Positions 200 to 25,963 of a stretch of 64,000 bases of DNA are shown here, piece after piece. Source of the stretch: an uncultured virus (IMG/VR IMGVR_UViG_3300007722_002942) (Duplodnaviria; Heunggongvirae; Uroviricota; Caudoviricetes); IMG/VR virus record IMGVR_UViG_3300007722_002942. The stretch is one strand, 5' to 3'. A program made the position numbers and the translations under genes. The notes below the pieces were generated by a model. It was not told the origin of the DNA. It saw nothing but the letters and a program-made list of their open reading frames with translations, and ran no database searches. Position 1 is the stretch's first letter. Every line of letters starts with the position of its first letter.

Positions 200-271
200 G
201 CCGGATTAGTTTAATTGGAAAAACATAATTCTCGTAAAATTAAGTTACCAGTTCAATTCTGGTATCTGGCT
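200..271 (+). tRNA. tRNA-Thr(CGT)
   Basis: Acceptor GCCGGAT/ATCTGGC; anticodon arm TAATT-CTCGTAA-AATTA; T arm ACCAG-TTCAATT-CTGGT. Confidence 0.85.
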
Positions 272-304
272 TATTATTTAATAACATGTCGATATAGAGA
301 ATAC

Positions 305-377
305 GGCGATATAGCTCAATTGGCAGAGCAAGCTCTTCATACGGGAAAGGTTGCAGGTTCGAGTCCTGCTATCGCTA
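305..377 (+). tRNA. tRNA with CAT anticodon (Met or Ile2), weak anticodon stem
   Basis: Acceptor GGCGATA/TATCGCT; canonical D arm; T arm GCAGG-TTCGAGT-CCTGC; loop TTCATAC with two mismatches in the stem. Confidence 0.7.
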
Positions 378-379
378 TT

Positions 380-781
380 ATGGAAAAAAATACTAAAACA
401 AAGTCTATAATACCAACTAAAGTGAAACATACTACGGGTAGTATAATAATACCTAAAAATAAAACTGAAACTGAAAAAGATGAGTATTATAATGAATGTA
501 CTGCTAATTCATATTATAATTTTTACAAAATTTGTAGAAATGCTGTTTCTTTTGCTAAAAGAAAATTATTATTAGAAACTCCAAATGACAAGTTTAAAAG
601 GTGTCCAATTAGATTCTTAGGATTCAAATGGAGTAGATTATCAACTTGGTTTATTAGTAAAGATAAAAAGATTAATAATTTCAAGAAAAATTATTGCAAT
701 TCAAATTCTACGAATGAGAAGATTGACTTATGGTTTGAAAGAAGTGGATTATCTCTTACTAAGACAAAATGGATGCAATAG
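380..781 (+). CDS. hypothetical protein
   Basis: Track ORF 215..781 trimmed to ATG 380 because its 5' part overlaps two tRNAs. Confidence 0.6.
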   Translation: MEKNTKTKSIIPTKVKHTTGSIIIPKNKTETEKDEYYNECTANSYYNFYKICRNAVSFAKRKLLLETPNDKFKRCPIRFLGFKWSRLSTWFISKDKKINNFKKNYCNSNSTNEKIDLWFERSGLSLTKTKWMQ

Positions 782-799
782 TGTAACAGGAGTTATAAA

Positions 800-1318
800 A
801 TGTATAACATCGGAATTAAACTGGATAAAAGTTTTTACGGTAAAGATTACAAAGTAGGATGGGATATGACTGCTAATTATGCAGTTGTTACAAATATGGT
901 AGATGACAGACAGCCCGGCCTACTAGGAAAATTAGAAAGGCTAATAGCCAGCGGCATAGCATACTCTCACTTAGAATATGCGTTTTTTGATCGCAATTTT
1001 CTATGTGAACAAAAAACATTCGTAAAAAAAACTGAAGCAGAACAAAGAAAATGGTTAGAGCAAACTTGGACTAGATTTACAGACTATGAAATGGGACATG
1101 GAATACCAAATGACCATATGAAAGATGTAGAAGAACGTGCTTATACATTATGGATTAACGATGGAAAACCAGAAGGTAAGGCAGGAGAGCATTATCAAAG
1201 AGCCAAATTTGAAATACGAGGCTCACCGCCACAACATAGTTCTAACTCTGATTATGGTCGCAAGCACTATCGAACATACTGCAACAATGATGATGGATAT
1301 TGGCCTCATGAAGCTTAG
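800..1318 (+). CDS. hypothetical protein with DUF2934-like segment
   Basis: RBS AGGAG; motif VEERAYTLWINDGKPEGKAGEHYQRA. Confidence 0.65.
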   Translation: MYNIGIKLDKSFYGKDYKVGWDMTANYAVVTNMVDDRQPGLLGKLERLIASGIAYSHLEYAFFDRNFLCEQKTFVKKTEAEQRKWLEQTWTRFTDYEMGHGIPNDHMKDVEERAYTLWINDGKPEGKAGEHYQRAKFEIRGSPPQHSSNSDYGRKHYRTYCNNDDGYWPHEA

Positions 1319-1371
1319 TTTTATTAACAAGTAGTACTTAGAATACTTGTTTAAAATATAGTAATAACATT

Positions 1372-3664: not shown

Positions 3665-4114
3665 ATGAAAGAATCTATAACAGTAGCTACACAGAAAATA
3701 GATATTGAAATAAAGCCTATTACCTTGCTTGTTCCATCTCATGAATTTTCTGCTGGTCCTAGAATTGACTATCCAAGCAGACTCAAGATAGATACGGACG
3801 CTACGGTACATCATGCAAGAAATGTCAAAAAATTACATAAAAAATTTATAGAAACATGGAAAACTTTTATGCTTAACACAAGTTGCAAGGAATATGTTAA
3901 GTATGAAATTACAGCAGATAATATTAGAACTTTTGGTATGGGTTCTATTCATTTAATGGGACTTATTGATTTGTCATTAAAATTCAAAGATATAAATATT
4001 CCTTTTGTATGGGTTTATCCAGAGTCTTTTCTTCATCCAAGTTGGCATGGTGCATTGGTAGATTTAGCAATATCGCTATCTGAGGATCAAGATATTCATT
4101 CTCCGGAAAATTAA
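3665..4114 (+). CDS. hypothetical protein
   Basis: ORF; YPESFLHPSW resembles an ABC-ATPase D-loop remnant. Confidence 0.55.
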   Translation: MKESITVATQKIDIEIKPITLLVPSHEFSAGPRIDYPSRLKIDTDATVHHARNVKKLHKKFIETWKTFMLNTSCKEYVKYEITADNIRTFGMGSIHLMGLIDLSLKFKDINIPFVWVYPESFLHPSWHGALVDLAISLSEDQDIHSPEN

Positions 4115-15863: not shown

Positions 15864-15889
15864 GTGAATAGATTAACGCATTTATCACA

Positions 15890-15971
15890 GGGCGGTTGTC
15901 GGAGCGGCTAACGAGCTCGTCTGCAAAACGAGTGGAGCAATCCTTCATGGGTTCGAGTCCCATACTGCCCT
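15890..15971 (+). tRNA. tRNA-Cys(GCA) with long variable arm
   Basis: GGGCGGT/ACTGCCC, U73; CTCGT-CTGCAAA-ACGAG; variable arm GGA-GCAA-TCC. Confidence 0.88.
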
Positions 15972-15981
15972 TTTATAATAT

Positions 15982-16066
15982 GCCGCTATGACGGAATTGG
16001 TAGACGACCTGGATTCAAAATCCAGTGAGCTAAAAACTCGTGCAGGTTCGAATCCTGCTGGCGGTA
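15982..16066 (+). tRNA. tRNA-Leu(CAA)
   Basis: CTGGA-TTCAAAA-TCCAG; long variable arm; A73. Confidence 0.92.
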
Positions 16067-16074
16067 TTTTCTTT

Positions 16075-16158
16075 GTGTCGGTATGCAAACTGGATAAGCA
16101 GGCAGACTGTAAATCTGCTGCCTAACGGCGATTATAGGTTCGAGTCCTATCCGGCACA
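16075..16158 (+). tRNA. tRNA-Tyr(GTA)
   Basis: GCAGA-CTGTAAA-TCTGC; long variable arm. Confidence 0.92.
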
Positions 16159-16173
16159 TTGGTTTAGAGTATT

Positions 16174-16255
16174 GCGGGTGTGGCGTAATTGGCAGCCGCG
16201 CCAGATTTAGGTTCTGGTCTCGAAAGAGGTATGGGTTCAAATCCCTTCACCCGCA
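16174..16255 (+). tRNA. tRNA-Leu(TAG)
   Basis: CCAGA-TTTAGGT-TCTGG; GCGGGTG/CACCCGC. Confidence 0.92.
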
Positions 16256-16268
16256 TTTTTTATGATAT

Positions 16269-16353
16269 GCCGCCATGCCGGAATTGGTAGACGACCTGGA
16301 TTTAAAATCCAGTGAGCTAAAAACTCGTGCAGGTTCGAATCCTGCTGGCGGTA
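16269..16353 (+). tRNA. tRNA-Leu(TAA)
   Basis: CTGGA-TTTAAAA-TCCAG; near-copy of tRNA-Leu(CAA). Confidence 0.92.
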
Positions 16354-16431
16354 TTTTTCTCCGGAAGTATTTTATAATGTCTTATCTTTAGGGCATGTTT
16401 AACCAAATATTCTTTAGAAAAAGGAAAAACC

Positions 16432-16770
16432 ATGATTATCCTAGACGGTGGAAAATCTTTAGAAAAAGAACAATATCTTTCTGGTAGAGTTATATTTTTC
16501 AAAGGTGATACGGCAGGTCGAAATTATCAAGAAGGTGAGCAATGCGCCTTTTATTGCGGACCAGAATCAGAGACAGAGGGAATGCTCAGTGATTATGAAT
16601 CTGTTAATGATATTATGAATGAAGCTTTTGAAGGCTCAGGACTTAATATTGATATAGGTGCTTCCGAATCATATCATCTTATATGGTATGATTCTACTAA
16701 GTCTTTTGAAGAAGTTTGGGAAATAGTCAAAAATAGATTAATTCCCCTTGGATTTATTGAAATAGATTAA
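16432..16770 (+). CDS. hypothetical protein within tRNA array
   Basis: AAGGA RBS; acidic 112-aa ORF. Confidence 0.65.
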   Translation: MIILDGGKSLEKEQYLSGRVIFFKGDTAGRNYQEGEQCAFYCGPESETEGMLSDYESVNDIMNEAFEGSGLNIDIGASESYHLIWYDSTKSFEEVWEIVKNRLIPLGFIEID

Positions 16771-16798
16771 TTTCATATTGGTATGAAAAATTGATAAA

Positions 16799-17014
16799 AT
16801 GAATAACAAACTCCTGTCATTAAAAACCGTGTCCAAAAGATTAATAGAAATTCATGTAAAAAAGAAGAAAATGTCGGAAAAGTTTGCATTAGAAGAGAAA
16901 GAAGTTAAAGATAGATGTCCTCATAATTTTGTATACGAGCCAGATCCTTCTGGGAATAATGATTCAGGTTACTATTGTTCAACATGTGATAAGTGGGTAA
17001 AAAATATCACATAA
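16799..17014 (+). CDS. small Zn-binding-like protein
   Basis: CPH...CSTC. Confidence 0.6.
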   Translation: MNNKLLSLKTVSKRLIEIHVKKKKMSEKFALEEKEVKDRCPHNFVYEPDPSGNNDSGYYCSTCDKWVKNIT

Positions 17015-17041
17015 ATAGAATATCATTACGTATGTTTTTAA

Positions 17042-17126
17042 GTCCTTATGGCGGAATTGGCAGACGCACCACTTTAAGGTAGTGGCAACCGAAAGGTTAT
17101 TGCAGGTTCGAATCCTGCTAAGGATA
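17042..17126 (+). tRNA. tRNA-Leu(AAG)
   Basis: GTCCTTA/TAAGGAT; CCACT-TTAAGGT-AGTGG gives anticodon AAG; long variable arm. Confidence 0.88.
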
Positions 17127-17135
17127 TTATAGTAT

Positions 17136-17274
17136 GCTGCGGCAAACGCTGCGGAAGCGTTGACAGGTTGCCAGTCAAATCGATTGAGTCTGCTACGTCT
17201 GAGACTGGTGATTGTCGTCATACATGTGGACTCCCGTGTATTGATTTAGATAGGTTCGACTCCTATTCGCAGCT
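17136..17274 (+). ncRNA. tRNA-like RNA with extended anticodon and variable arms
   Basis: Acceptor GCTGCGG/TCGCAGC and T arm ATAGG-TTCGACT-CCTAT flank oversized arms. Confidence 0.7.
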
Positions 17275-17339
17275 TTGATAAGATAAAGGATTGTAAACAT
17301 TAATCTTTATCTTTATGGTAAGTCAATAGAATGAAATTT

Positions 17340-17428
17340 GGAAGTGTGGCCGAGCGGCTTAAGGCTCAAGTTTGCTAAACTTGCGGGTTAAATTGATAGC
17401 CCCACAGGTTCGAATCCTGTCACTTCCG
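17340..17428 (+). tRNA. tRNA-Ser(GCT)
   Basis: CAAGT-TTGCTAA-ACTTG; G73. Confidence 0.92.
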
Positions 17429-17429
17429 T

Positions 17430-17617
17430 TTACAGTTGCGATGCCTTAACTGGCTGAGTGCAGGAATATGGTAAAGCTAGAAATTATGACAAAAGGGCGT
17501 ACTCTGAGTTTGTTCTAAATGAGCAATAGGATAGTTAAGACTGCATCTAGGCTATCATCAGACCCGGCCATGAGCCGAGCGGGAACCGTCATAATACCAA
17601 TTAAGTCGCAACTGTAA
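17430..17617 (+). ncRNA. unidentified 188-nt structured RNA
   Basis: 12-bp perfect closing stem TTACAGTTGCGA/TCGCAACTGTAA with nested helices; fills the gap between two tRNA-Ser genes. Confidence 0.65.
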
Positions 17618-17619
17618 TT

Positions 17620-17705
17620 GGAAACGTGACTGAGTGGCTTAAGGTACTTGTTTCGAAAACAGGAGGCGGGAATCCCGCCCGCGAGTTCGAATCTCGCCGT
17701 TTCCG
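17620..17705 (+). tRNA. tRNA-Ser(CGA)
   Basis: CTTGT-TTCGAAA-ACAGG; GGAAACG/CGTTTCC. Confidence 0.92.
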
Positions 17706-17719
17706 TTGAAAGGATTTTT

Positions 17720-17869
17720 ATGAAAAGGTATCCATGTGGATTATCAAAATATGAATGGTATAGCATTATGGATAAAACAAAGGAATTAGACGACTTATAT
17801 TATAGATATATAAGAGACTATAAGCCAACAATTATAGAAAGAATTTTTTGTTTTATAAGCAGATTGTGA
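17720..17869 (+). CDS. small hypothetical protein
   Basis: AAGGA RBS; track ORF trimmed past the tRNA. Confidence 0.45.
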   Translation: MKRYPCGLSKYEWYSIMDKTKELDDLYYRYIRDYKPTIIERIFCFISRL

Positions 17870-18021
17870 TATTCAATAAGGTTAATAATGAATAGTGTGT
17901 TTGCAAATTCTTATATAAAAACAAAAAGCGATGCTGTTAATAACAATATAATATCTGTATCTTTTGTATCAGAAGATTTTATAGAATGCGAAGAAGAGAT
18001 ATTTATCAAATAGGTAATAAG

Positions 18022-18412
18022 TGGTATTTAGCAATATCAGATATTAACAATGACGGACTGATAATTTAGGTGTTCCTACTTCAGATTGGACAACAGCAGC
18101 AAATATTGATCAGATTAATGGATCTGCTTCACAAGCAGAGCCAAGATTTGGTGGAGTTCCTTTAGGCTCTACTTATATGTATTTCCTTGTAGCAGGAGTG
18201 AGATATTGGGAATGGAAGCTTTCAGAAACAGCGTTATCAGCTCCTTAAATTTCTATGGAGATCCATTATATCCTGGTTCAATTACTGTCCCACAATACGC
18301 TAAGAACGTAACTAGTGACTTAACATGTATTGATGGTGTAATTTCTGGAACAGTTGTTCTTAAGGCCGTTACGGTTCCTGCTGATGGTGATTTGACTTTA
18401 ATTTTTGGCTGA
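18022..18412 (+). pseudogene. frameshifted fragment of a probable virion/structural-type gene
   Basis: Protein-like text (WYLAISDINNDG / TDNLGVPTSDW...RYWEW / FYGDPLYPGSIT...LTLIFG) continues across frame changes, with no clear start. Confidence 0.35.
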
Positions 18413-18420
18413 AAAGATTT

Positions 18421-18506
18421 GGTAGGTTTGGGCATTGGCAAGCCTCCTCGATTTGAAATCGAGCAAGCCTGAAAGGGCTTTGTCGGTTCGACTCCGGCAC
18501 CTACCG
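18421..18506 (+). tRNA. tRNA-Ser(TGA)
   Basis: CTCGA-TTTGAAA-TCGAG; GGTAGGT/ACCTACC; G73. Confidence 0.9.
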
Positions 18507-18510
18507 CTTT

Positions 18511-18597
18511 GGAAGATTAACCGCCTGGGCACAGCGGCCTCGTTTGGAAAACGAGTGGTGGTCTAAAAGCCATAAGGTTCGAGTCCTTAGTCTTCCG
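18511..18597 (+). tRNA. tRNA-Ser(GGA)
   Basis: CTCGT-TTGGAAA-ACGAG; GGAAGAT/GTCTTCC; G73. Confidence 0.88.
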
Positions 18598-18600
18598 TTT

Positions 18601-20866: not shown

Positions 20867-21649
20867 ATGGCTGAAAAAATTAACATACTAATAATTGATC
20901 CTCAGAACGATTTTATTGATGAAAAGGGATCATTAATGGTTAAAGGGGCTATTAACGATATGAATCGTTTATCTTTATTGATTAATAATAGAGTAAAAGA
21001 TATATCTAGTATAACTTTATCCCTTGATAACCATCATAGGTTTAATATATCGCATCCCTTATACTGGGTTGGAAGAAATGGTAATCATCCTAACCCATTC
21101 ACAATTATTGATCCAAGCGAGGTCTTAGATGGACACTGGGTTCCTTCTAAAAAGGAATTATTAGATATATCTTTAAATTATCTTAAAGAGTTAGATAAGC
21201 CTCATTGTATTTGGCCTTATCATTGTCTTGTTGGATCATGGGGTTCTAATATACATGAGTCTATAGATTACGCAATATCAAATTGGGAAACAGAGAAAAA
21301 AGATATGGCTTTTAAGATAATTAAGGGCTTGTATCCGTATTCCGAATGGTTTAGTGCGATAGAGGCAATAGAGCCTAATGATGATAATCCTGAGACTCTT
21401 CCTAATAAATCTGCTCTTGATAGAATAGAAAATTCAGATAATACTCTTATAGCAGGAGAGGCTAGTTCTCATTGTGTTTCAGAAACTGTAAGAAGCATTG
21501 TTAAGCATAGACCTAATGCTATTTCAAAGATTGTTTTATTAAAAGATGCTATGAGTCCTGTTTCTGGTTTTGAAGAGTATGAAGATAATTTTTTTAATGA
21601 AATGAAGATACTTGGAGTCAGGGAAGGCTTTACGTCAGATTTTTATTAA
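20867..21649 (+). CDS. pncA: nicotinamidase (isochorismatase family)
   Basis: LIIDPQNDF, D.H, WPYHC, KG, AGEASSHCV catalytic motifs. Confidence 0.85.
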   Translation: MAEKINILIIDPQNDFIDEKGSLMVKGAINDMNRLSLLINNRVKDISSITLSLDNHHRFNISHPLYWVGRNGNHPNPFTIIDPSEVLDGHWVPSKKELLDISLNYLKELDKPHCIWPYHCLVGSWGSNIHESIDYAISNWETEKKDMAFKIIKGLYPYSEWFSAIEAIEPNDDNPETLPNKSALDRIENSDNTLIAGEASSHCVSETVRSIVKHRPNAISKIVLLKDAMSPVSGFEEYEDNFFNEMKILGVREGFTSDFY

Positions 21650-22261: not shown

Positions 22262-22469
22262 ATTATATTTAACTATAATGGATTACTGGGATGGTAACTT
22301 TATTATCTCAAGAATTTTTTTATGTAATATAATTGTGTTATTTATAATCTTATTTCCAATTACAATAGTATTTTCTATATATACTATGTATTTATATTTC
22401 TTAGATAAATGTATAAAAAAAAGGTTTAATAAATTTTACAATGGCAAACTCAGAAAAATTAATCGTTAG
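22254..22469 (+). CDS. small membrane protein
   Basis: Long hydrophobic stretch with basic tail. Confidence 0.5.
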   Translation: MLKLYLTIMDYWDGNFIISRIFLCNIIVLFIILFPITIVFSIYTMYLYFLDKCIKKRFNKFYNGKLRKINR

Positions 22470-22860
22470 AAAAATTAGCTTAGAAGAGATAAAAAATAAT
22501 CTTTACACTTATAAGGCTCATGTTTTAGATGTGTATGATGGAGATACTATTACTGTAGCTATAGATTTAGGTATGGATATCTATAAGAAAACAAAAATTA
22601 GATTTTATGGAATAAATGCTCCAGAATTAAATGGTAGTAGATTAAGCGATAAAGAAAAGGCAGAAGCTAGGAGAAGTAAGAATTACGTTTATAGAAAAAT
22701 ATCATCAAAAGAAATTTATATTCAAACTGTAAAAGATAAAACTGAAAAGTATGGTAGATATTTGGGAATTATTTGGGTATTAAATGAAAAGAATAAATAT
22801 TACGAATGTCTTAATGATATGATGTTAAGAAATAATCTTGCTAAGTCTTTGCTATATTGA
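22441..22860 (+). CDS. thermonuclease (SNase) family protein
   Basis: VYDGDTI, IRFYGINAPE, EKYGRYL. Confidence 0.9.
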   Translation: MANSEKLIVRKISLEEIKNNLYTYKAHVLDVYDGDTITVAIDLGMDIYKKTKIRFYGINAPELNGSRLSDKEKAEARRSKNYVYRKISSKEIYIQTVKDKTEKYGRYLGIIWVLNEKNKYYECLNDMMLRNNLAKSLLY

Positions 22861-22908
22861 GGATTATATTCTTATCCGGAATTTCAAGATAATTGGTTAT
22901 AAGAGTAT

Positions 22909-22980
22909 GCACCTGTAACTCAATTGGTAGAGTACGGTTTTCTAAAAACTAGAGTGAGGGTTCGAATCCCTCCAGGTGTT
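22909..22980 (+). tRNA. amber suppressor tRNA (anticodon CTA)
   Basis: GCACCTG/CAGGTGT; D arm ACTC/GAGT; CGGTT-TTCTAAA-AACTA with CTA at 22942-22944; T arm GAGGG-TTCGAAT-CCCTC. Confidence 0.8.
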
Positions 22981-22990
22981 TTAAAAGGAT

Positions 22991-23557
22991 ATGATTATGA
23001 GTAAGATATTAAAATCCGCTGAATTAGCAAGATATGCTCATTCCGAGCAGGTTAGGAAATTTAGCGGGTTGCCGTACGTATCTCATGTTGGGAGGGTGGC
23101 AGGAAGAGTAGCTGTTCATAAATTTTCTACAGAAGATATGATTGCGGCTGCTTTTTGTCATGATATACTGGAAGATACTAGGATAAATTATGAAGAATTA
23201 TCTCTCGTAATTGGAAAAAATGCTGCTAATATTGTTTTAGAGTTAACGAATCCTTCCAAGAATAGTTCGTTATCAAGATCTGAAAGAAAAAGGATGGATA
23301 GGGATCATATTGTTAAAATTAGTAAAGAGGCAAGGATTATAAAGTTTTTCGATAGAATAGATAATATATCAGAACTTTTAAGAGATTATTTCGTACTATC
23401 TAAATCAGAAAAAGAATTTTCAGCAATATATGCCTATGAATCAAGGTTGCTATTAGATGTTCTTAATGGCTTAGATGAAGATTTGGAAGCAGAACTTCTA
23501 TTTGTAATAGAAGGATTGGAAAAAAATATATCACAAGGAAAAACAATCATGGCTTAG
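22991..23557 (+). CDS. HD-domain (p)ppGpp hydrolase-like (Mesh1/SAH-type)
   Basis: AH..QVRK..G.PYVSH, HDILEDT, IKFFDRIDN; ends in TAG. Confidence 0.88.
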   Translation: MIMSKILKSAELARYAHSEQVRKFSGLPYVSHVGRVAGRVAVHKFSTEDMIAAAFCHDILEDTRINYEELSLVIGKNAANIVLELTNPSKNSSLSRSERKRMDRDHIVKISKEARIIKFFDRIDNISELLRDYFVLSKSEKEFSAIYAYESRLLLDVLNGLDEDLEAELLFVIEGLEKNISQGKTIMA

Positions 23558-23902
23558 GACAATACACCGTATACGTATGTAATTACAAGAAGAGATTTAC
23601 CCATTTCTGTAGCTGCTGTTCAGTCAGCACATGCTGCAATTGAAGCATCAAGATATCTAATTCCTCCATAGGAAGATCATCCTCATCTGGTTCTTTGCGC
23701 TGTAAGCAATGAGAGTAAGTTATTGCATTGGTCATCTAAATTGCAGTCTTTAGGATTTGCAATTAAAGAATGGCGTGAGCCTGACCGTAATAATGAGCTT
23801 ACGGCTATCTGTACAGGTATTATTCGAGGAGATGATCGTAAGGCATTTCGTAATCTTCAATTATTCAAAACACAGGAAATTACATCTACATGTTGTGGAT
23901 GA
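23549..23902 (+). CDS. peptidyl-tRNA hydrolase 2-like protein with two in-frame TAG codons
   Basis: Manual translation MA*DNTPYTYVITRRDL..AAVQSAHAA..PP*EDHPHLVLCAV..WREPDRNNELTAIC..FRNLQLF; own RBS AAGGA; TAG at 23555 and 23669. Confidence 0.82.
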
Positions 23903-23929
23903 GATATCACTTTTTTTAAGGAGTATGTT

Positions 23930-24301
23930 ATGTTACAGGATCAATTGCATCAGACTAAGTGGGGATTTGTTCCCTGCGACTTTGAAAAGTATAAGTTTTT
24001 CAAAGAGTTGAATTTACGCTGCTTTCAGGATGTTCGTGCTGTTGCAGCAAGGGATAGATGGCATCGTAAGGAGCCTCAGAATAGAGTTATTAGAAAATGG
24101 ATTAGAAATACAAATGGGCAGAAGATAGGTTCTGTAGTGATAGGCCCAAGGACTGAACCATCTGTTAGTGGATTATGGAAATACAGATGTGAAATAGAAA
24201 GAGCATACTATCTTGCCAGGTATCCAGATTCTAAAGAAAAGGCTATATTGGCTTCTAAGGAAATTGAAGAGATTGAAAAACAACTGAATGGTAAAATATA
24301 A
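23930..24301 (+). CDS. hypothetical protein
   Basis: RBS AAGGAG; 123 aa. Confidence 0.7.
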   Translation: MLQDQLHQTKWGFVPCDFEKYKFFKELNLRCFQDVRAVAARDRWHRKEPQNRVIRKWIRNTNGQKIGSVVIGPRTEPSVSGLWKYRCEIERAYYLARYPDSKEKAILASKEIEEIEKQLNGKI

Positions 24302-24307
24302 TTACAG

Positions 24308-24341
24308 ATAGCAGATGAATAAACTCATCTGCTATTATTTT
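24308..24341. terminator. hairpin terminator between convergent genes
   Basis: ATAGCAGATGA-ATAAAC-TCATCTGCTAT followed by TATTTT. Confidence 0.7.
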
Positions 24342-24595
24342 GTTACAGCATTGAATTTTTTCAAAGGACATGCAAATAAAGGATCTCTTGTTATACTATT
24401 TACAAGTTTGTTTACTTTTTTACAAACACTAGATGTGGTTAATCCATTTGTAGACTTGTATCTTGCATGAGGATTTTTGGTTGCAAATACGCATGATCTG
24501 CATGAATCTCTTCTTGTATGAACTGTGCTAATAGCGAGCTGACCCTGTTGATTTATGTTTGTAGTATTTTTATTTTTTTTACATCCGCATGACAT
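24335..24595 (-). CDS. small Cys-rich protein
   Basis: MSCGCKK start; CRSC, C, CP.KKF. Confidence 0.65.
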   Translation of the reverse strand: MSCGCKKNKNTTNINQQGQLAISTVHTRRDSCRSCVFATKNPHARYKSTNGLTTSSVCKKVNKLVNSITRDPLFACPLKKFNAVTK

Positions 24596-25306: not shown

Positions 25307-25963
25307 TTGGAACAAATGATGAATGGAAAGCAAAATGATGCTTGGAAATTACAAACTGCCAAGACACTTGATGAAGTGACATCTGCTTGGAGATTAGTTT
25401 ATAGAGAATATCTATCTTTTGGATTTGTTAATCCTAATAAAAATAGAATGGTATCCCCTCTCGTTATAAATGAAAATTCTCTTGTTTTATTTAGTAGTAT
25501 TTACCATATCTGTATTTCAACTATGACATGTACTATAGACAACGGCAAAGGAAGTGGCTTAGATGATATTTTTCCAGATATAATGAATGATCTTAAAAAA
25601 GATGGTAAGATCATGGACATATCTATGTTTGCTAGTGTTCGTGGCAAGGCTGATTTAAATTCTCTATCTAGGGATATGATAGATTTTATAAGATATTCCT
25701 TATCTTATGCATTACATAATAGCGTATCAACAATTGTTATGGGGATTAATCCCTTATGCTCTGAATTTTATTCTAAAGTATTTAATTTTAATGTAACTAA
25801 CGTAATTAAAAAGTATCATAAATATAATAACATACCAGTTGAACTTGTTTACATAAAAACAGACAGTATAAATAATATAGAAAATAAAATACTCAGAAAC
25901 GTCTTAACAGAAAAAGTAGACAAATCATTCTTTGAAGATAGGTATATTATGGATTCTTATTAA
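25307..25963 (+). CDS. GNAT-fold N-acyl amino acid synthase (FeeM-like)
   Basis: A.TLDEVTSAWRLVYREYL..G.V, TMT, GINP...FY...F.F. Confidence 0.6.
   Translation: MEQMMNGKQNDAWKLQTAKTLDEVTSAWRLVYREYLSFGFVNPNKNRMVSPLVINENSLVLFSSIYHICISTMTCTIDNGKGSGLDDIFPDIMNDLKKDGKIMDISMFASVRGKADLNSLSRDMIDFIRYSLSYALHNSVSTIVMGINPLCSEFYSKVFNFNVTNVIKKYHKYNNIPVELVYIKTDSINNIENKILRNVLTEKVDKSFFEDRYIMDSY

Follow-up and report, generated by a model that had tools for sequence, protein, structure and literature searches.

Early or in-frame stop codons figure in several described systems. The prfB gene carries an early in-frame UGA that is escaped by a +1 frameshift, and its product is release factor 2 (RF2). In Qbeta A1 and retroviral gag-pol, programmed stop read-through by host near-cognate tRNAs, helped by RNA context, yields a minor extended isoform, and the bar minigenes of phage lambda are free-standing open reading frames (ORFs) of a few codons that poison hosts deficient in peptidyl-tRNA hydrolase (Pth) through peptidyl-tRNA drop-off. 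For phages that change their genetic code, a preprint reports that in-frame stops hold back late or lytic genes until suppressor tRNAs are made, that recoding is often limited to part of a genome, that the code-change genes are themselves written in the standard code and that standard-code relatives with a newly gained suppressor exist; tRNAs, aminoacyl-tRNA synthetases and release factors were found in that work, and the machinery is admitted to be incomplete (10.1101/2021.08.26.457843). Here we describe a locus in a 64,000-nucleotide stretch ('the window') of the uncultured virus record IMGVR_UViG_3300007722_002942 (Caudoviricetes), where a gene for a suppressor tRNA with anticodon CUA (tRNA-CUA) shares a short cassette with the gene of a Pth2-fold hydrolase interrupted by two in-frame TAG codons. 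Comparison with related sequences indicates that synthesis of this hydrolase is very probably gated by the cognate phage suppressor.

In-frame stops and suppressor tRNAs across the hydrolase family

In the window, the hydrolase frame reads ATG GCT TAG GAC ... CCA TAG GAA ... TGA. Its only in-frame stops are the TAGs at codon 3 (23555) and codon 41 (23669), both have GA as the next two bases, and the gene contains no start codon alternative to the leader ATG. The first TAG (23555–23557) doubles as the stop of the preceding gene, which encodes an HD-type phosphohydrolase. This arrangement had been proposed in a first-pass annotation made from the letters alone, which also listed the CTA-anticodon tRNA and an AAGGA ribosome-binding site belonging to the hydrolase gene. 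All of these elements stand: the tRNA was found at the same place by ARAGORN and Rfam, the HD gene and the frame with its two TAGs were recovered, and the binding site and the TAG-GA contexts were verified by direct reading. A conserved partner gene downstream (23930–24301), the mini-leader of 2–8 codons as a conserved start and the family-wide pattern described below were not part of that annotation.

From viral and metagenome contigs, 81 loci were assembled, corresponding to 63 distinct hydrolase gene sequences. The first-pass annotation had suggested examining whether homologues keep the in-frame TAG, and they do so widely, with leader stops in 31 of the 63 sequences and internal TAGs in 16. 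The leader layout consists of a Shine–Dalgarno (SD) sequence, ATG, one to seven sense codons and an in-frame stop (#), as in MA#, MT#, MS#, MSH#, MGFT#, MNDI#, MNEFQ#, M[ST]APFA# and MN[ES]KTGW#. The leader stop is TAG in 30 sequences, TGA in one and TAA in none, and lies 7–37 codons from the conserved R-x-D-L domain; 19 of the first 29 leader genes contain no ATG, GTG or TTG between the stop and the domain. The internal stops are all TAG and fall in two loop regions, where invariant residues flank them on both sides, and no frameshift was found in the family genes. The 'PP-TAG' site of the window is common to five sequences in which the adjacent codons differ synonymously. At the site homologous to window codon 41, TAG is present in L003, L004, L026 and L035, and CAA (Gln) in L008 and L027.

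Taken together, the in-frame stops of the family (n = 47) comprise 46 TAG, one TGA and no TAA, whereas the true terminators of the same genes are TGA in 33, TAA in 17 and TAG in 8 cases. Of 46 bases directly 3' of an in-frame stop, 40 are purines, against a background of 56% (P = 6e-6), which generalises the earlier remark on the TAG-GA context in the window; a purine after UAG favours suppression in Escherichia coli. Standard gene callers miss or truncate these genes: several database homologues start at an internal Val or just past the internal TAG, so that mis-annotation of the family is systematic.

On a tree of 61 rows, with few alignment columns for that number of rows and with two sequences lacking the anchor motif left out, the leader stop marked one clade of 31 rows with weak support (Shimodaira–Hasegawa-like approximate likelihood ratio test, SH-aLRT, 84). 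This clade was composed of 28 scored rows, two further rows shown to have the leader (L005 and L030) and one whose start is cut off by the contig end (L062). Path lengths inside it were about 1 substitution per site or more, and the internal TAGs required about 11 changes on the tree. The confinement of the leader stop to one deep clade and the repeated changes at the internal sites suggest that the leader is old and has been retained, and that the internal TAGs arose repeatedly.

The TAGs of the window are reproduced in independent assemblies. Contigs L002, L020 and L021 differ from the window at 1–2 of 2301 positions, none of them inside a TAG, and four more runs, belonging to three studies (microbial mat, aquatic and sediment), supplied contigs with >99% identity to the window locus, in which 14 sites vary and both TAGs are constant. 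The single nucleotide polymorphism inside the hydrolase gene among these strain contigs, 23725 G>A, is a synonymous Leu change. Poor support for the TAGs had been named at the outset as a reason to abandon the proposal; since the near-identical contigs all retain both codons, the TAGs are not assembly errors. The near-identical contigs come from freshwater and microbial-mat habitats.

A suppressor tRNA was found in the locus DNA of 30 of the 63 distinct loci (28 with anticodon CUA and 2 with UCA), always on the strand of the gene and often within 1 kb of it, in line with the neighbouring CUA tRNA that the earlier reading had proposed to look for in homologous loci. Many loci are contigs of only 1–3 kb; 24 extend for at least 1 kb to either side of the gene, and a suppressor tRNA is present in 16 of these, within 1.5 kb in 13. 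A tRNA-UCA lies 279 nt upstream of the sole TGA leader (MK-TGA, in L008), whose 124-kb record contains no tRNA-CUA. tRNA-CUA genes were present in all larger TAG-leader records examined (G002, G003, G005, G007 and the window), with two in G003 (nearest at 2.5 kb), one in G005 (at 0.6 kb) and three in G002. This covariation of stop and anticodon, the retained leader stop and the recurring internal TAGs agree with the earlier proposal that recoding of the gene depends on a neighbouring suppressor.

Three further loci come from genome bins labelled Planctomycetia (L108), Frigoriglobus (L109) and Saccharibacteria (L110). All three have a tRNA-CUA about 500–650 nt downstream of the hydrolase gene, and two have an MPAPFA# leader. 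Because a tRNA-CUA adjoins each, these are probably phage or prophage contigs, and their labels may hint at the hosts of the GC-rich clade. No Pfam family recurred among the neighbours of the hydrolase gene in a scan of 128 of the 178 neighbouring ORFs around 20 loci, the other 50, mostly short or overlapping, having been dropped by hand. G003 (L083–L107) is a complete giant phage genome of 498,568 bp with 72 tRNAs covering most anticodons, a transfer-messenger RNA (tmRNA) at 361529–361880 and its two tRNA-CUA genes 4 kb apart.

The window tRNA-CUA is 72 nt long and matches the Rfam tRNA model with 58.9 bits (E 1.1e-11, model positions 1–71), its cloverleaf is canonical by both ARAGORN and Rfam, and its anticodon is CUA. 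Atop the anticodon stem is a C x A mismatch (window 22935/22951, tRNA positions 27/43), so that four pairs form. Strain variants preserve the cloverleaf, and 22950 T>C converts a G-U pair into G-C; in one strain variant, C27 is replaced by A. tRNAs with 4-bp anticodon stems that read stop codons are the subject of a 2026 paper in Nucleic Acids Research (NAR; PMC13092985). When isotypes were sought by similarity to 152 ordinary tRNAs, there was no clear nearest type for any of 34 suppressors, and the best similarity of the window tRNA-CUA to any ordinary tRNA was 0.71. There was no sign of a pyrrolysine system: 'Pyl' is the label that ARAGORN gives to this anticodon, and no pyl genes turned up among the scanned ORFs of the window and the neighbours in its relatives.

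The hydrolase and the other genes of the cassette

By its family profile and predicted fold, the hydrolase belongs to the Pth2 superfamily. The read-through product of the window had been assigned to this family in the first-pass annotation, with a search against the PTH2 profile as a proposed check. Taken alone, the product scores below the curated cut-off of Pfam PTH2 (PF01981; 19.5 bits and E 0.0012 against a cut-off of 23), but among 42 aligned relatives, PTH2 is matched by 36 with E <= 0.01 (best value 3.2e-13). The first search for homologues of the window hydrolase returned 12 proteins, and homologues have identities of 35–54%. Compared with solved Pth2 chains, the family profile matched 2zv3_A (E 3.5e-7), 24bt_A (9e-7) and 1rzw_A (1.4e-4). 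An AlphaFold2 (AF2) model of the hydrolase (predicted local distance difference test, pLDDT, 93.8; predicted template modelling score, pTM, 0.84) has the alpha/beta fold of Pth2, with coil at residues 38–45 around the second in-frame TAG. A Foldseek search with this model returned 14 matches at E <= 0.001, namely 13 Pth2-family chains (template modelling score, TM, 0.53–0.73; probability 1.00) and 2gax, whose function is unknown; the match after these was at E 0.11.

Residues R14, D16, Q25, H28, L58, R76-E-P-D79, E83 and T85 are invariant in the 42 aligned relatives. Catalysis in canonical Pth2 relies on the Lys of an N-terminal 'GK' segment together with the Asp and Thr of the C-terminal D-A-G..T segment. 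When the profile is aligned to 2zv3, R-E-P-D falls over R-D-A-G and E-L-T-A over T-L-T-A, and the 'GK' pair falls in a two-residue gap; thus an acidic residue and the Thr are kept (E77, D79 and T85 being invariant in all 42 sequences) and the Lys segment is not. By analogy with Pth2 enzymes, the product is probably a tRNA-ester hydrolase. The family comprises 2,530 representative clusters at E <= 1e-10 among 1.84 billion proteins and is nearly absent from cellular genomes, where one genome for each of 185,579 species gave 3 matches, all in metagenome bins.

Four database proteins of 260–282 aa (P0136, P0198, P0227 and P0266) are natural single-ORF fusions of an HD-type domain, with an H-D-x-G-K-P motif, to a Pth2-like domain. 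Their N-domain has a weak match (E 1.5e-4) to residues 260–377 of 3wfp, which is a tRNA A-adding enzyme; this hints that tRNA 3' ends may be where the family acts. We rejected these proteins as support for a fusion in the window, their N-domain being unrelated to the window HD protein in a profile comparison (probability 0.07).

The HD ORF of the window contains the H-D metal motif (CHDILED) and matches Pfam HD_4 (E 1e-9, 38.8 bits against a cut-off of 27.2), Pfam HD (23.1 bits, cut-off 22) and PHROG 990, a metal-dependent phosphohydrolase (E 1.2e-22). The leader ATG-GCT of the hydrolase doubles as the final two codons of the HD gene, and a ribosome passing the HD stop would make a 303-aa fusion protein. 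The first-pass annotation had proposed either a free Pth2 or an HD-Pth2 fusion and had counted the HD enzyme as part of the module. Its free form is the one that proved conserved: relatives have an SD and ATG for the hydrolase itself, preceded by an unrelated gene or by one in a different frame, which makes the free, leader-initiated hydrolase the conserved form. The HD gene lies near a tRNA-CUA only in the window phage and in the L004/G003 lineage, and in L004 it stands as a gene of its own, 2.6 kb upstream and beyond the tRNA. Membership of the HD enzyme in the conserved module is therefore not supported, and from the sequence the HD-Pth2 fusion is a possible, lineage-specific product of the window phage. 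A tblastn search with the 303-aa read-through product retrieved 221 phage records, none covering at least 80% of the query, and the 20 matches listed all lay inside the HD part; blastn of the locus against deposited phage genomes gave no match.

By tblastn, the partner gene has relatives in 12 other distinct lineages, where they lie downstream of the hydrolase gene: in most they follow directly, and in three there are about 430–800 nt between the two. The relatives share the motifs WGF.PC ... W.RW.RK.P[HQ]NR. In 7 GC-rich relatives, the partner is itself preceded by M-[TL]-TAG, and in L036 and L046 there is no canonical start past this TAG, suggesting that the same gate is applied to a second gene of the cassette. 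None of the 196 database relatives of the partner has an informative name or a Pfam match. Its AF2 model is confident (pLDDT 91.4), and comparison of the fold gave a best Foldseek E of 0.93, a best VIA Z of 6.3 to generic helical chains, in the uninformative range, and nothing usable from Atlas, so that no convincing structural relative emerged.

Features of the cassette in the window and the evidence for each
Feature	Coordinates	Strand	Basis or remark
Candidate phage promoter element TTATCCGGAA	22872..22881	+	5' of tRNA-CUA; putative promoter function
Amber suppressor tRNA, anticodon CUA, class I, CCA not encoded	22909..22980	+	ARAGORN, Rfam
HD phosphohydrolase gene (RelA/SpoT-type HD_4)	22991..23557	+	Pfam HD_4, PHROG 990
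SD AAGGA (23535-23539), 9-nt spacer, mini-leader ATG GCT TAG	23535..23557	+	Direct reading
Pth2-fold hydrolase gene, 117 codons, terminator TGA 23900-23902	23549..23902	+	Translation
Second gate codon TAG, codon 41	23669..23671	+	Loop between helix 1 and strand 2
Conserved partner gene, 123 aa, own AAGGAG SD	23930..24301	+	tblastn relatives
Intrinsic terminator, 12-pair stem, 6-nt loop, T-rich tail	24307..24346	+	Closes tRNA-HD-hydrolase-partner unit

The phage of the window is a giant phage, and its cassette is probably a single transcription unit bounded by the motif at 22872 and the terminator at 24307. The TCCGGA motif, which had been noticed as promoter-like before, is recurrent: with at most 1 mismatch, the element has 11 copies in the window against 4.2 expected, and 11 was reached in 0 of 100 shuffles. 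The copies of this motif, TT[AC]TCCGGAA, are those at 4099, 10720, 15571, 16357, 22872 and 31686 (+) and 5 further sites; several (4099, 10720, 15571, 16357 and 31686) lie directly 5' of genes or tRNA arrays, which makes the motif a candidate phage-specific promoter or regulatory element.

Upstream of the cassette are a 260-aa ORF without a Pfam match (20867–21649) and, directly adjacent, a staphylococcal-nuclease-like gene (22441–22860). Past the terminator, an 86-aa Cys-rich candidate ORF lies on the minus strand (24335–24595) within a 357-nt gap, and a gene for a FeeM-type N-acyl amino acid synthase (25307–25963, Pfam E 1.2e-19) follows 1 kb downstream of the cassette. ARAGORN detected 14 tRNAs in the window, the 13 besides tRNA-CUA being in arrays at 199–377, 1372–1443 and 15889–18598 and including Thr, Met, Cys, Tyr, 4 Leu and 4 Ser tRNAs. 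The CheckV completeness of 10% for a near-identical 39.3-kb contig suggests by extrapolation a genome of about 390–400 kb.

A proposed role in UAG decoding and its alternatives

On balance, the best explanation as a whole is a self-gated suppressor cassette whose enzyme acts on UAG decoding. Ribosomes would initiate on the hydrolase's own SD and ATG and run into UAG twice, first at codon 3 and then at codon 41; with no other start codon in the gene, full-length enzyme would be made only if tRNA-CUA beats release factor 1 (RF1) at both codons. Two gates would make output vary roughly as the square of suppression efficiency, a steep dependence. Ribosomes finishing the HD gene would meet the same first UAG, and some HD-hydrolase fusion may form. 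The gate positions, being in the N-terminal leader or in surface loops, would tolerate any residue. The enzyme would hydrolyse ester-linked tRNA species (acyl- or peptidyl-tRNA), as Pth2 enzymes do, and its synthesis would be tied to UAG decoding because it acts on that process, a logic like that of RF2. In the version we prefer, it would act on the suppressor tRNA, or on read-through products, by removing the acyl or peptidyl group, and the resulting set-point would keep suppression tolerable in genomes where 11–18% of ORFs terminate at TAG. That the output is feedback on suppression, rather than general rescue or timing, is proposed tentatively. It is a somewhat doubtful further step to regard the cassette as a natural, portable UAG-decoding circuit in which the enzyme, perhaps with the partner, acts on the acylated or peptidyl form of the suppressor or on RF1- or suppressor-bound ribosomes. 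If this were true, it would supply the protein component that phage code switching has lacked and would be a likely first stage on the way from the standard code to recoding, and enzyme and suppressor would set or switch the level of stop-codon read-through in the infected cell.

A rather unlikely alternative, the one put forward in the first-pass annotation, keeps the gate as described and makes the product a general peptidyl-tRNA hydrolase that clears peptidyl-tRNA after TAG read-through or RF1 impairment, leaving the suppressor itself unrestrained. The Pth2 fold and profile match suit such translation rescue, and so does the presence of a phage tmRNA in L014, at 2 kb from the module, and, within 25 kb of it, in G003; the neighbours also include a ClpB-type ATPase and domains for RNA repair, and TAG-terminated ORFs would offer many targets for read-through. 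However, the canonical 'GK' segment is missing from the hydrolase, no rescue factor is a consistent neighbour, and gate codons retained across a deep clade seem unnecessary for a Pth that does no harm when over-expressed, as a housekeeping-type Pth is harmless when over-made.

We regard as improbable a minimal code-switch timer, in which the suppressor delays a tiny set of TAG-containing genes (the hydrolase and sometimes the partner) until enough tRNA has built up and the hydrolase could have a late role unrelated to UAG decoding. Late genes of recoded phages offer a precedent in the preprint (10.1101/2021.08.26.457843), two gate codons would provide a steep threshold, and in one clade the partner is gated as well. 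Against this, the gated gene usually lies in the tRNA's own operon rather than in a late or lysis block, it is surrounded by genes other than structural or lysis ones, the scans of six genomes yielded no further gated gene, and the code-change genes of that preprint are in the standard code, the opposite of the cassette.

Genome-wide reassignment of TAG (code 15), with the hydrolase just one of many recoded genes, is very improbable. In its favour are the presence of a phage tRNA-CUA and the chance that recoding is regional, the window covering only 64 kb of about 390–400 kb. We compared ORF coverage, from ORFs of at least 100 aa, under code 11 and with TAG as sense in the window and in five relatives' records of 124–533 kb, two of them complete with terminal repeats (499 and 307 kb). 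Coverage under code 11 and with TAG as sense was.874/.896 in the window (87% under code 11),.889/.887 in G003,.853/.846 in G004,.820/.860 in G005,.800/.810 in G007 and.851/.859 in G002, and making TAG or TGA sense shifted coverage by -0.01 to +0.04 in all six sequences. A low code-11 density restored by reading TAG as sense was thus found neither in the window nor in its relatives. Of the 63 non-overlapping window ORFs with a length of 100 aa or more, 7 terminate at TAG; the figures are 82 of 502 ORFs for G003, 107 of 582 for G002 and 30 of 166 for G005, and TGA terminates 18 of 117 in G004. The complete G003 genome weighs particularly against reassignment, having the same two TAGs in its hydrolase gene. 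TAG splits no excess of long ORFs; the numbers of split long-ORF pairs in G003 were 60 for TAG, 40 for TAA and 117 for TGA.

In the window, the sole sizeable gene-free gap under code 11 that read-through fills is 23558–23929, and in-frame TAG is absent from the large genes at 33–63 kb. When the leader pattern was searched for, the hydrolase gene came up in all six sequences with no other convincing match, and in cross-genome BLAST for conserved proteins spanning an in-frame TAG, only the hydrolase gene came out clean; in-frame TAG in many, especially late, genes was not seen in these scans, which allow for a few unshared genes. Of six other BLAST hits, five were shadows of long ORFs in other frames, and the sixth was taken, from its position and peptide only, as translated tRNA-array sequence. 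We also rejected a second read-through gene in the window (215..1327, TAG 779), the upstream part of which overlaps two tRNAs and has no ATG, the downstream ORF having its own ATG at 800. Codon-usage scoring for TAG genes in G003 and the window was set aside as too noisy: it did not recover the Pth2-like gene of G003, and its two top candidates, judged by eye, resembled shadows of genes on the opposite strand. The genomes are in accord with the standard code, with TAG as an ordinary terminator, and the recoding is gene-specific, as the first-pass annotation had stated for the window.

A decaying pseudogene, or a tiny upstream ORF with re-initiation and no suppression, has a negligible probability: the window protein falls below the PTH2 cut-off, L011 has a GTG directly after its leader TAG and 10 of 29 scored leader genes have ATG, GTG or TTG before the domain, but the almost exclusive use of TAG set against mixed true terminators, the intact frames, the confident model, the invariant residues around the internal TAGs and the match between stop type and neighbouring anticodon all argue against decay, and internal TAGs inside the fold could not be bypassed by re-initiation, for which most of the first 29 leader genes also lack a restart codon.

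Several observations weigh against the self-gated cassette as we propose it. The 23 of 63 homologues without any in-frame stop imply that gating is not obligatory for the family. The suppressor tRNAs of the loci are highly diverse and none is assignable to an isotype, so an enzyme recognising the suppressor itself would need to read the anticodon or act on the ribosome, and the loss of the 'GK' residues of solved Pth2 means that chemistry or substrate may differ from peptidyl-tRNA hydrolysis. As for linkage, covariation of stop and anticodon for TGA rests on one lineage (L008); L050 has a tRNA-UCA 39 nt after its family member (L050:6330–6402) with no in-frame TGA; the only tRNA-CUA of G007 is 148 kb from the hydrolase gene, and the nearest in G002 is about 10 kb away. 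The six-genome scans could miss a few TAG-containing genes without homologues among those genomes, and none of the 20 listed sequencing runs with matching contigs is RNA. Negative feedback, finally, is an argument from circuit logic that does not distinguish it from rescue, a timer or positive feedback.

Comparison with known systems

A stop codon acting as a gate that is opened by a phage tRNA is known. In a search of open-access literature, exclusive of supplements, we found no description of a Pth2-like gene tied to phage suppressors or of a suppressor-gated gene in standard-code phages. The word 'hydrolase' has no occurrence in the text of the preprint of Borges et al. (10.1101/2021.08.26.457843), and 'peptidyl' and 'in-frame' have none in a 2026 jumbo-phage survey. 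The literature searched thus suggests that a dedicated tRNA-hydrolase(-partner) cassette in standard-code giant phages had not been described. The cassette would give suppressor tRNAs in such phages a concrete, testable role, with at least one dedicated client gene alongside, and it brings out two unstudied protein families, Pth2-like and partner, that are genetically tied to stop-codon suppression. It is a natural counterpart of the amber-gated gene circuits of synthetic biology, and the enzyme, if specific for suppressor tRNAs, would be a useful tool for orthogonal translation.

As in the cassette, a phage suppressor opens stop-codon gates in the code-change modules, which combine a suppressor tRNA with an aminoacyl-tRNA synthetase as well as a release factor; according to the preprint, many late or lytic genes are recoded there, code-11 density is low and the module genes themselves are standard (10.1101/2021.08.26.457843). 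The cassette differs in residing in standard-code genomes, in gating the neighbour of the tRNA and in having a Pth2-fold hydrolase as the protein partner. With archaeal and eukaryotic Pth2 (2zv3, 3erj, 1wn2, 1q7s and 1xty), the hydrolase model shares the fold (TM 0.68–0.72), and the profile alignment shows R-x-D-L ... Q..HA and ...TA..P motifs in common. Identity to solved Pth2 is 13–25%, with a two-residue deletion at 'GK', and the phage family has its own signature, F/W-R-E-P-D-R-N-N-E-x-T-A, is near phage-only and is linked to suppressor tRNAs.

In Qbeta and gag-pol, too, a defined in-frame stop is passed at some efficiency to give a needed product. In the cassette, however, the cognate suppressor is supplied by the virus, the stop is at codons 2–8 and there would be no product without read-through. 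The lambda bar minigenes resemble the cassette in that a short ORF with its stop is tied to peptidyl-tRNA hydrolase biology, whereas the mini-ORF of the cassette is in frame with the hydrolase gene and would gate it. With prfB, the cassette has in common an early, cognate in-frame stop, which is present and conserved here, and by analogy its product may likewise act on the decoding of that stop; unlike in prfB, the stop would be passed by in-frame read-through with a dedicated tRNA, and the product is a hydrolase.

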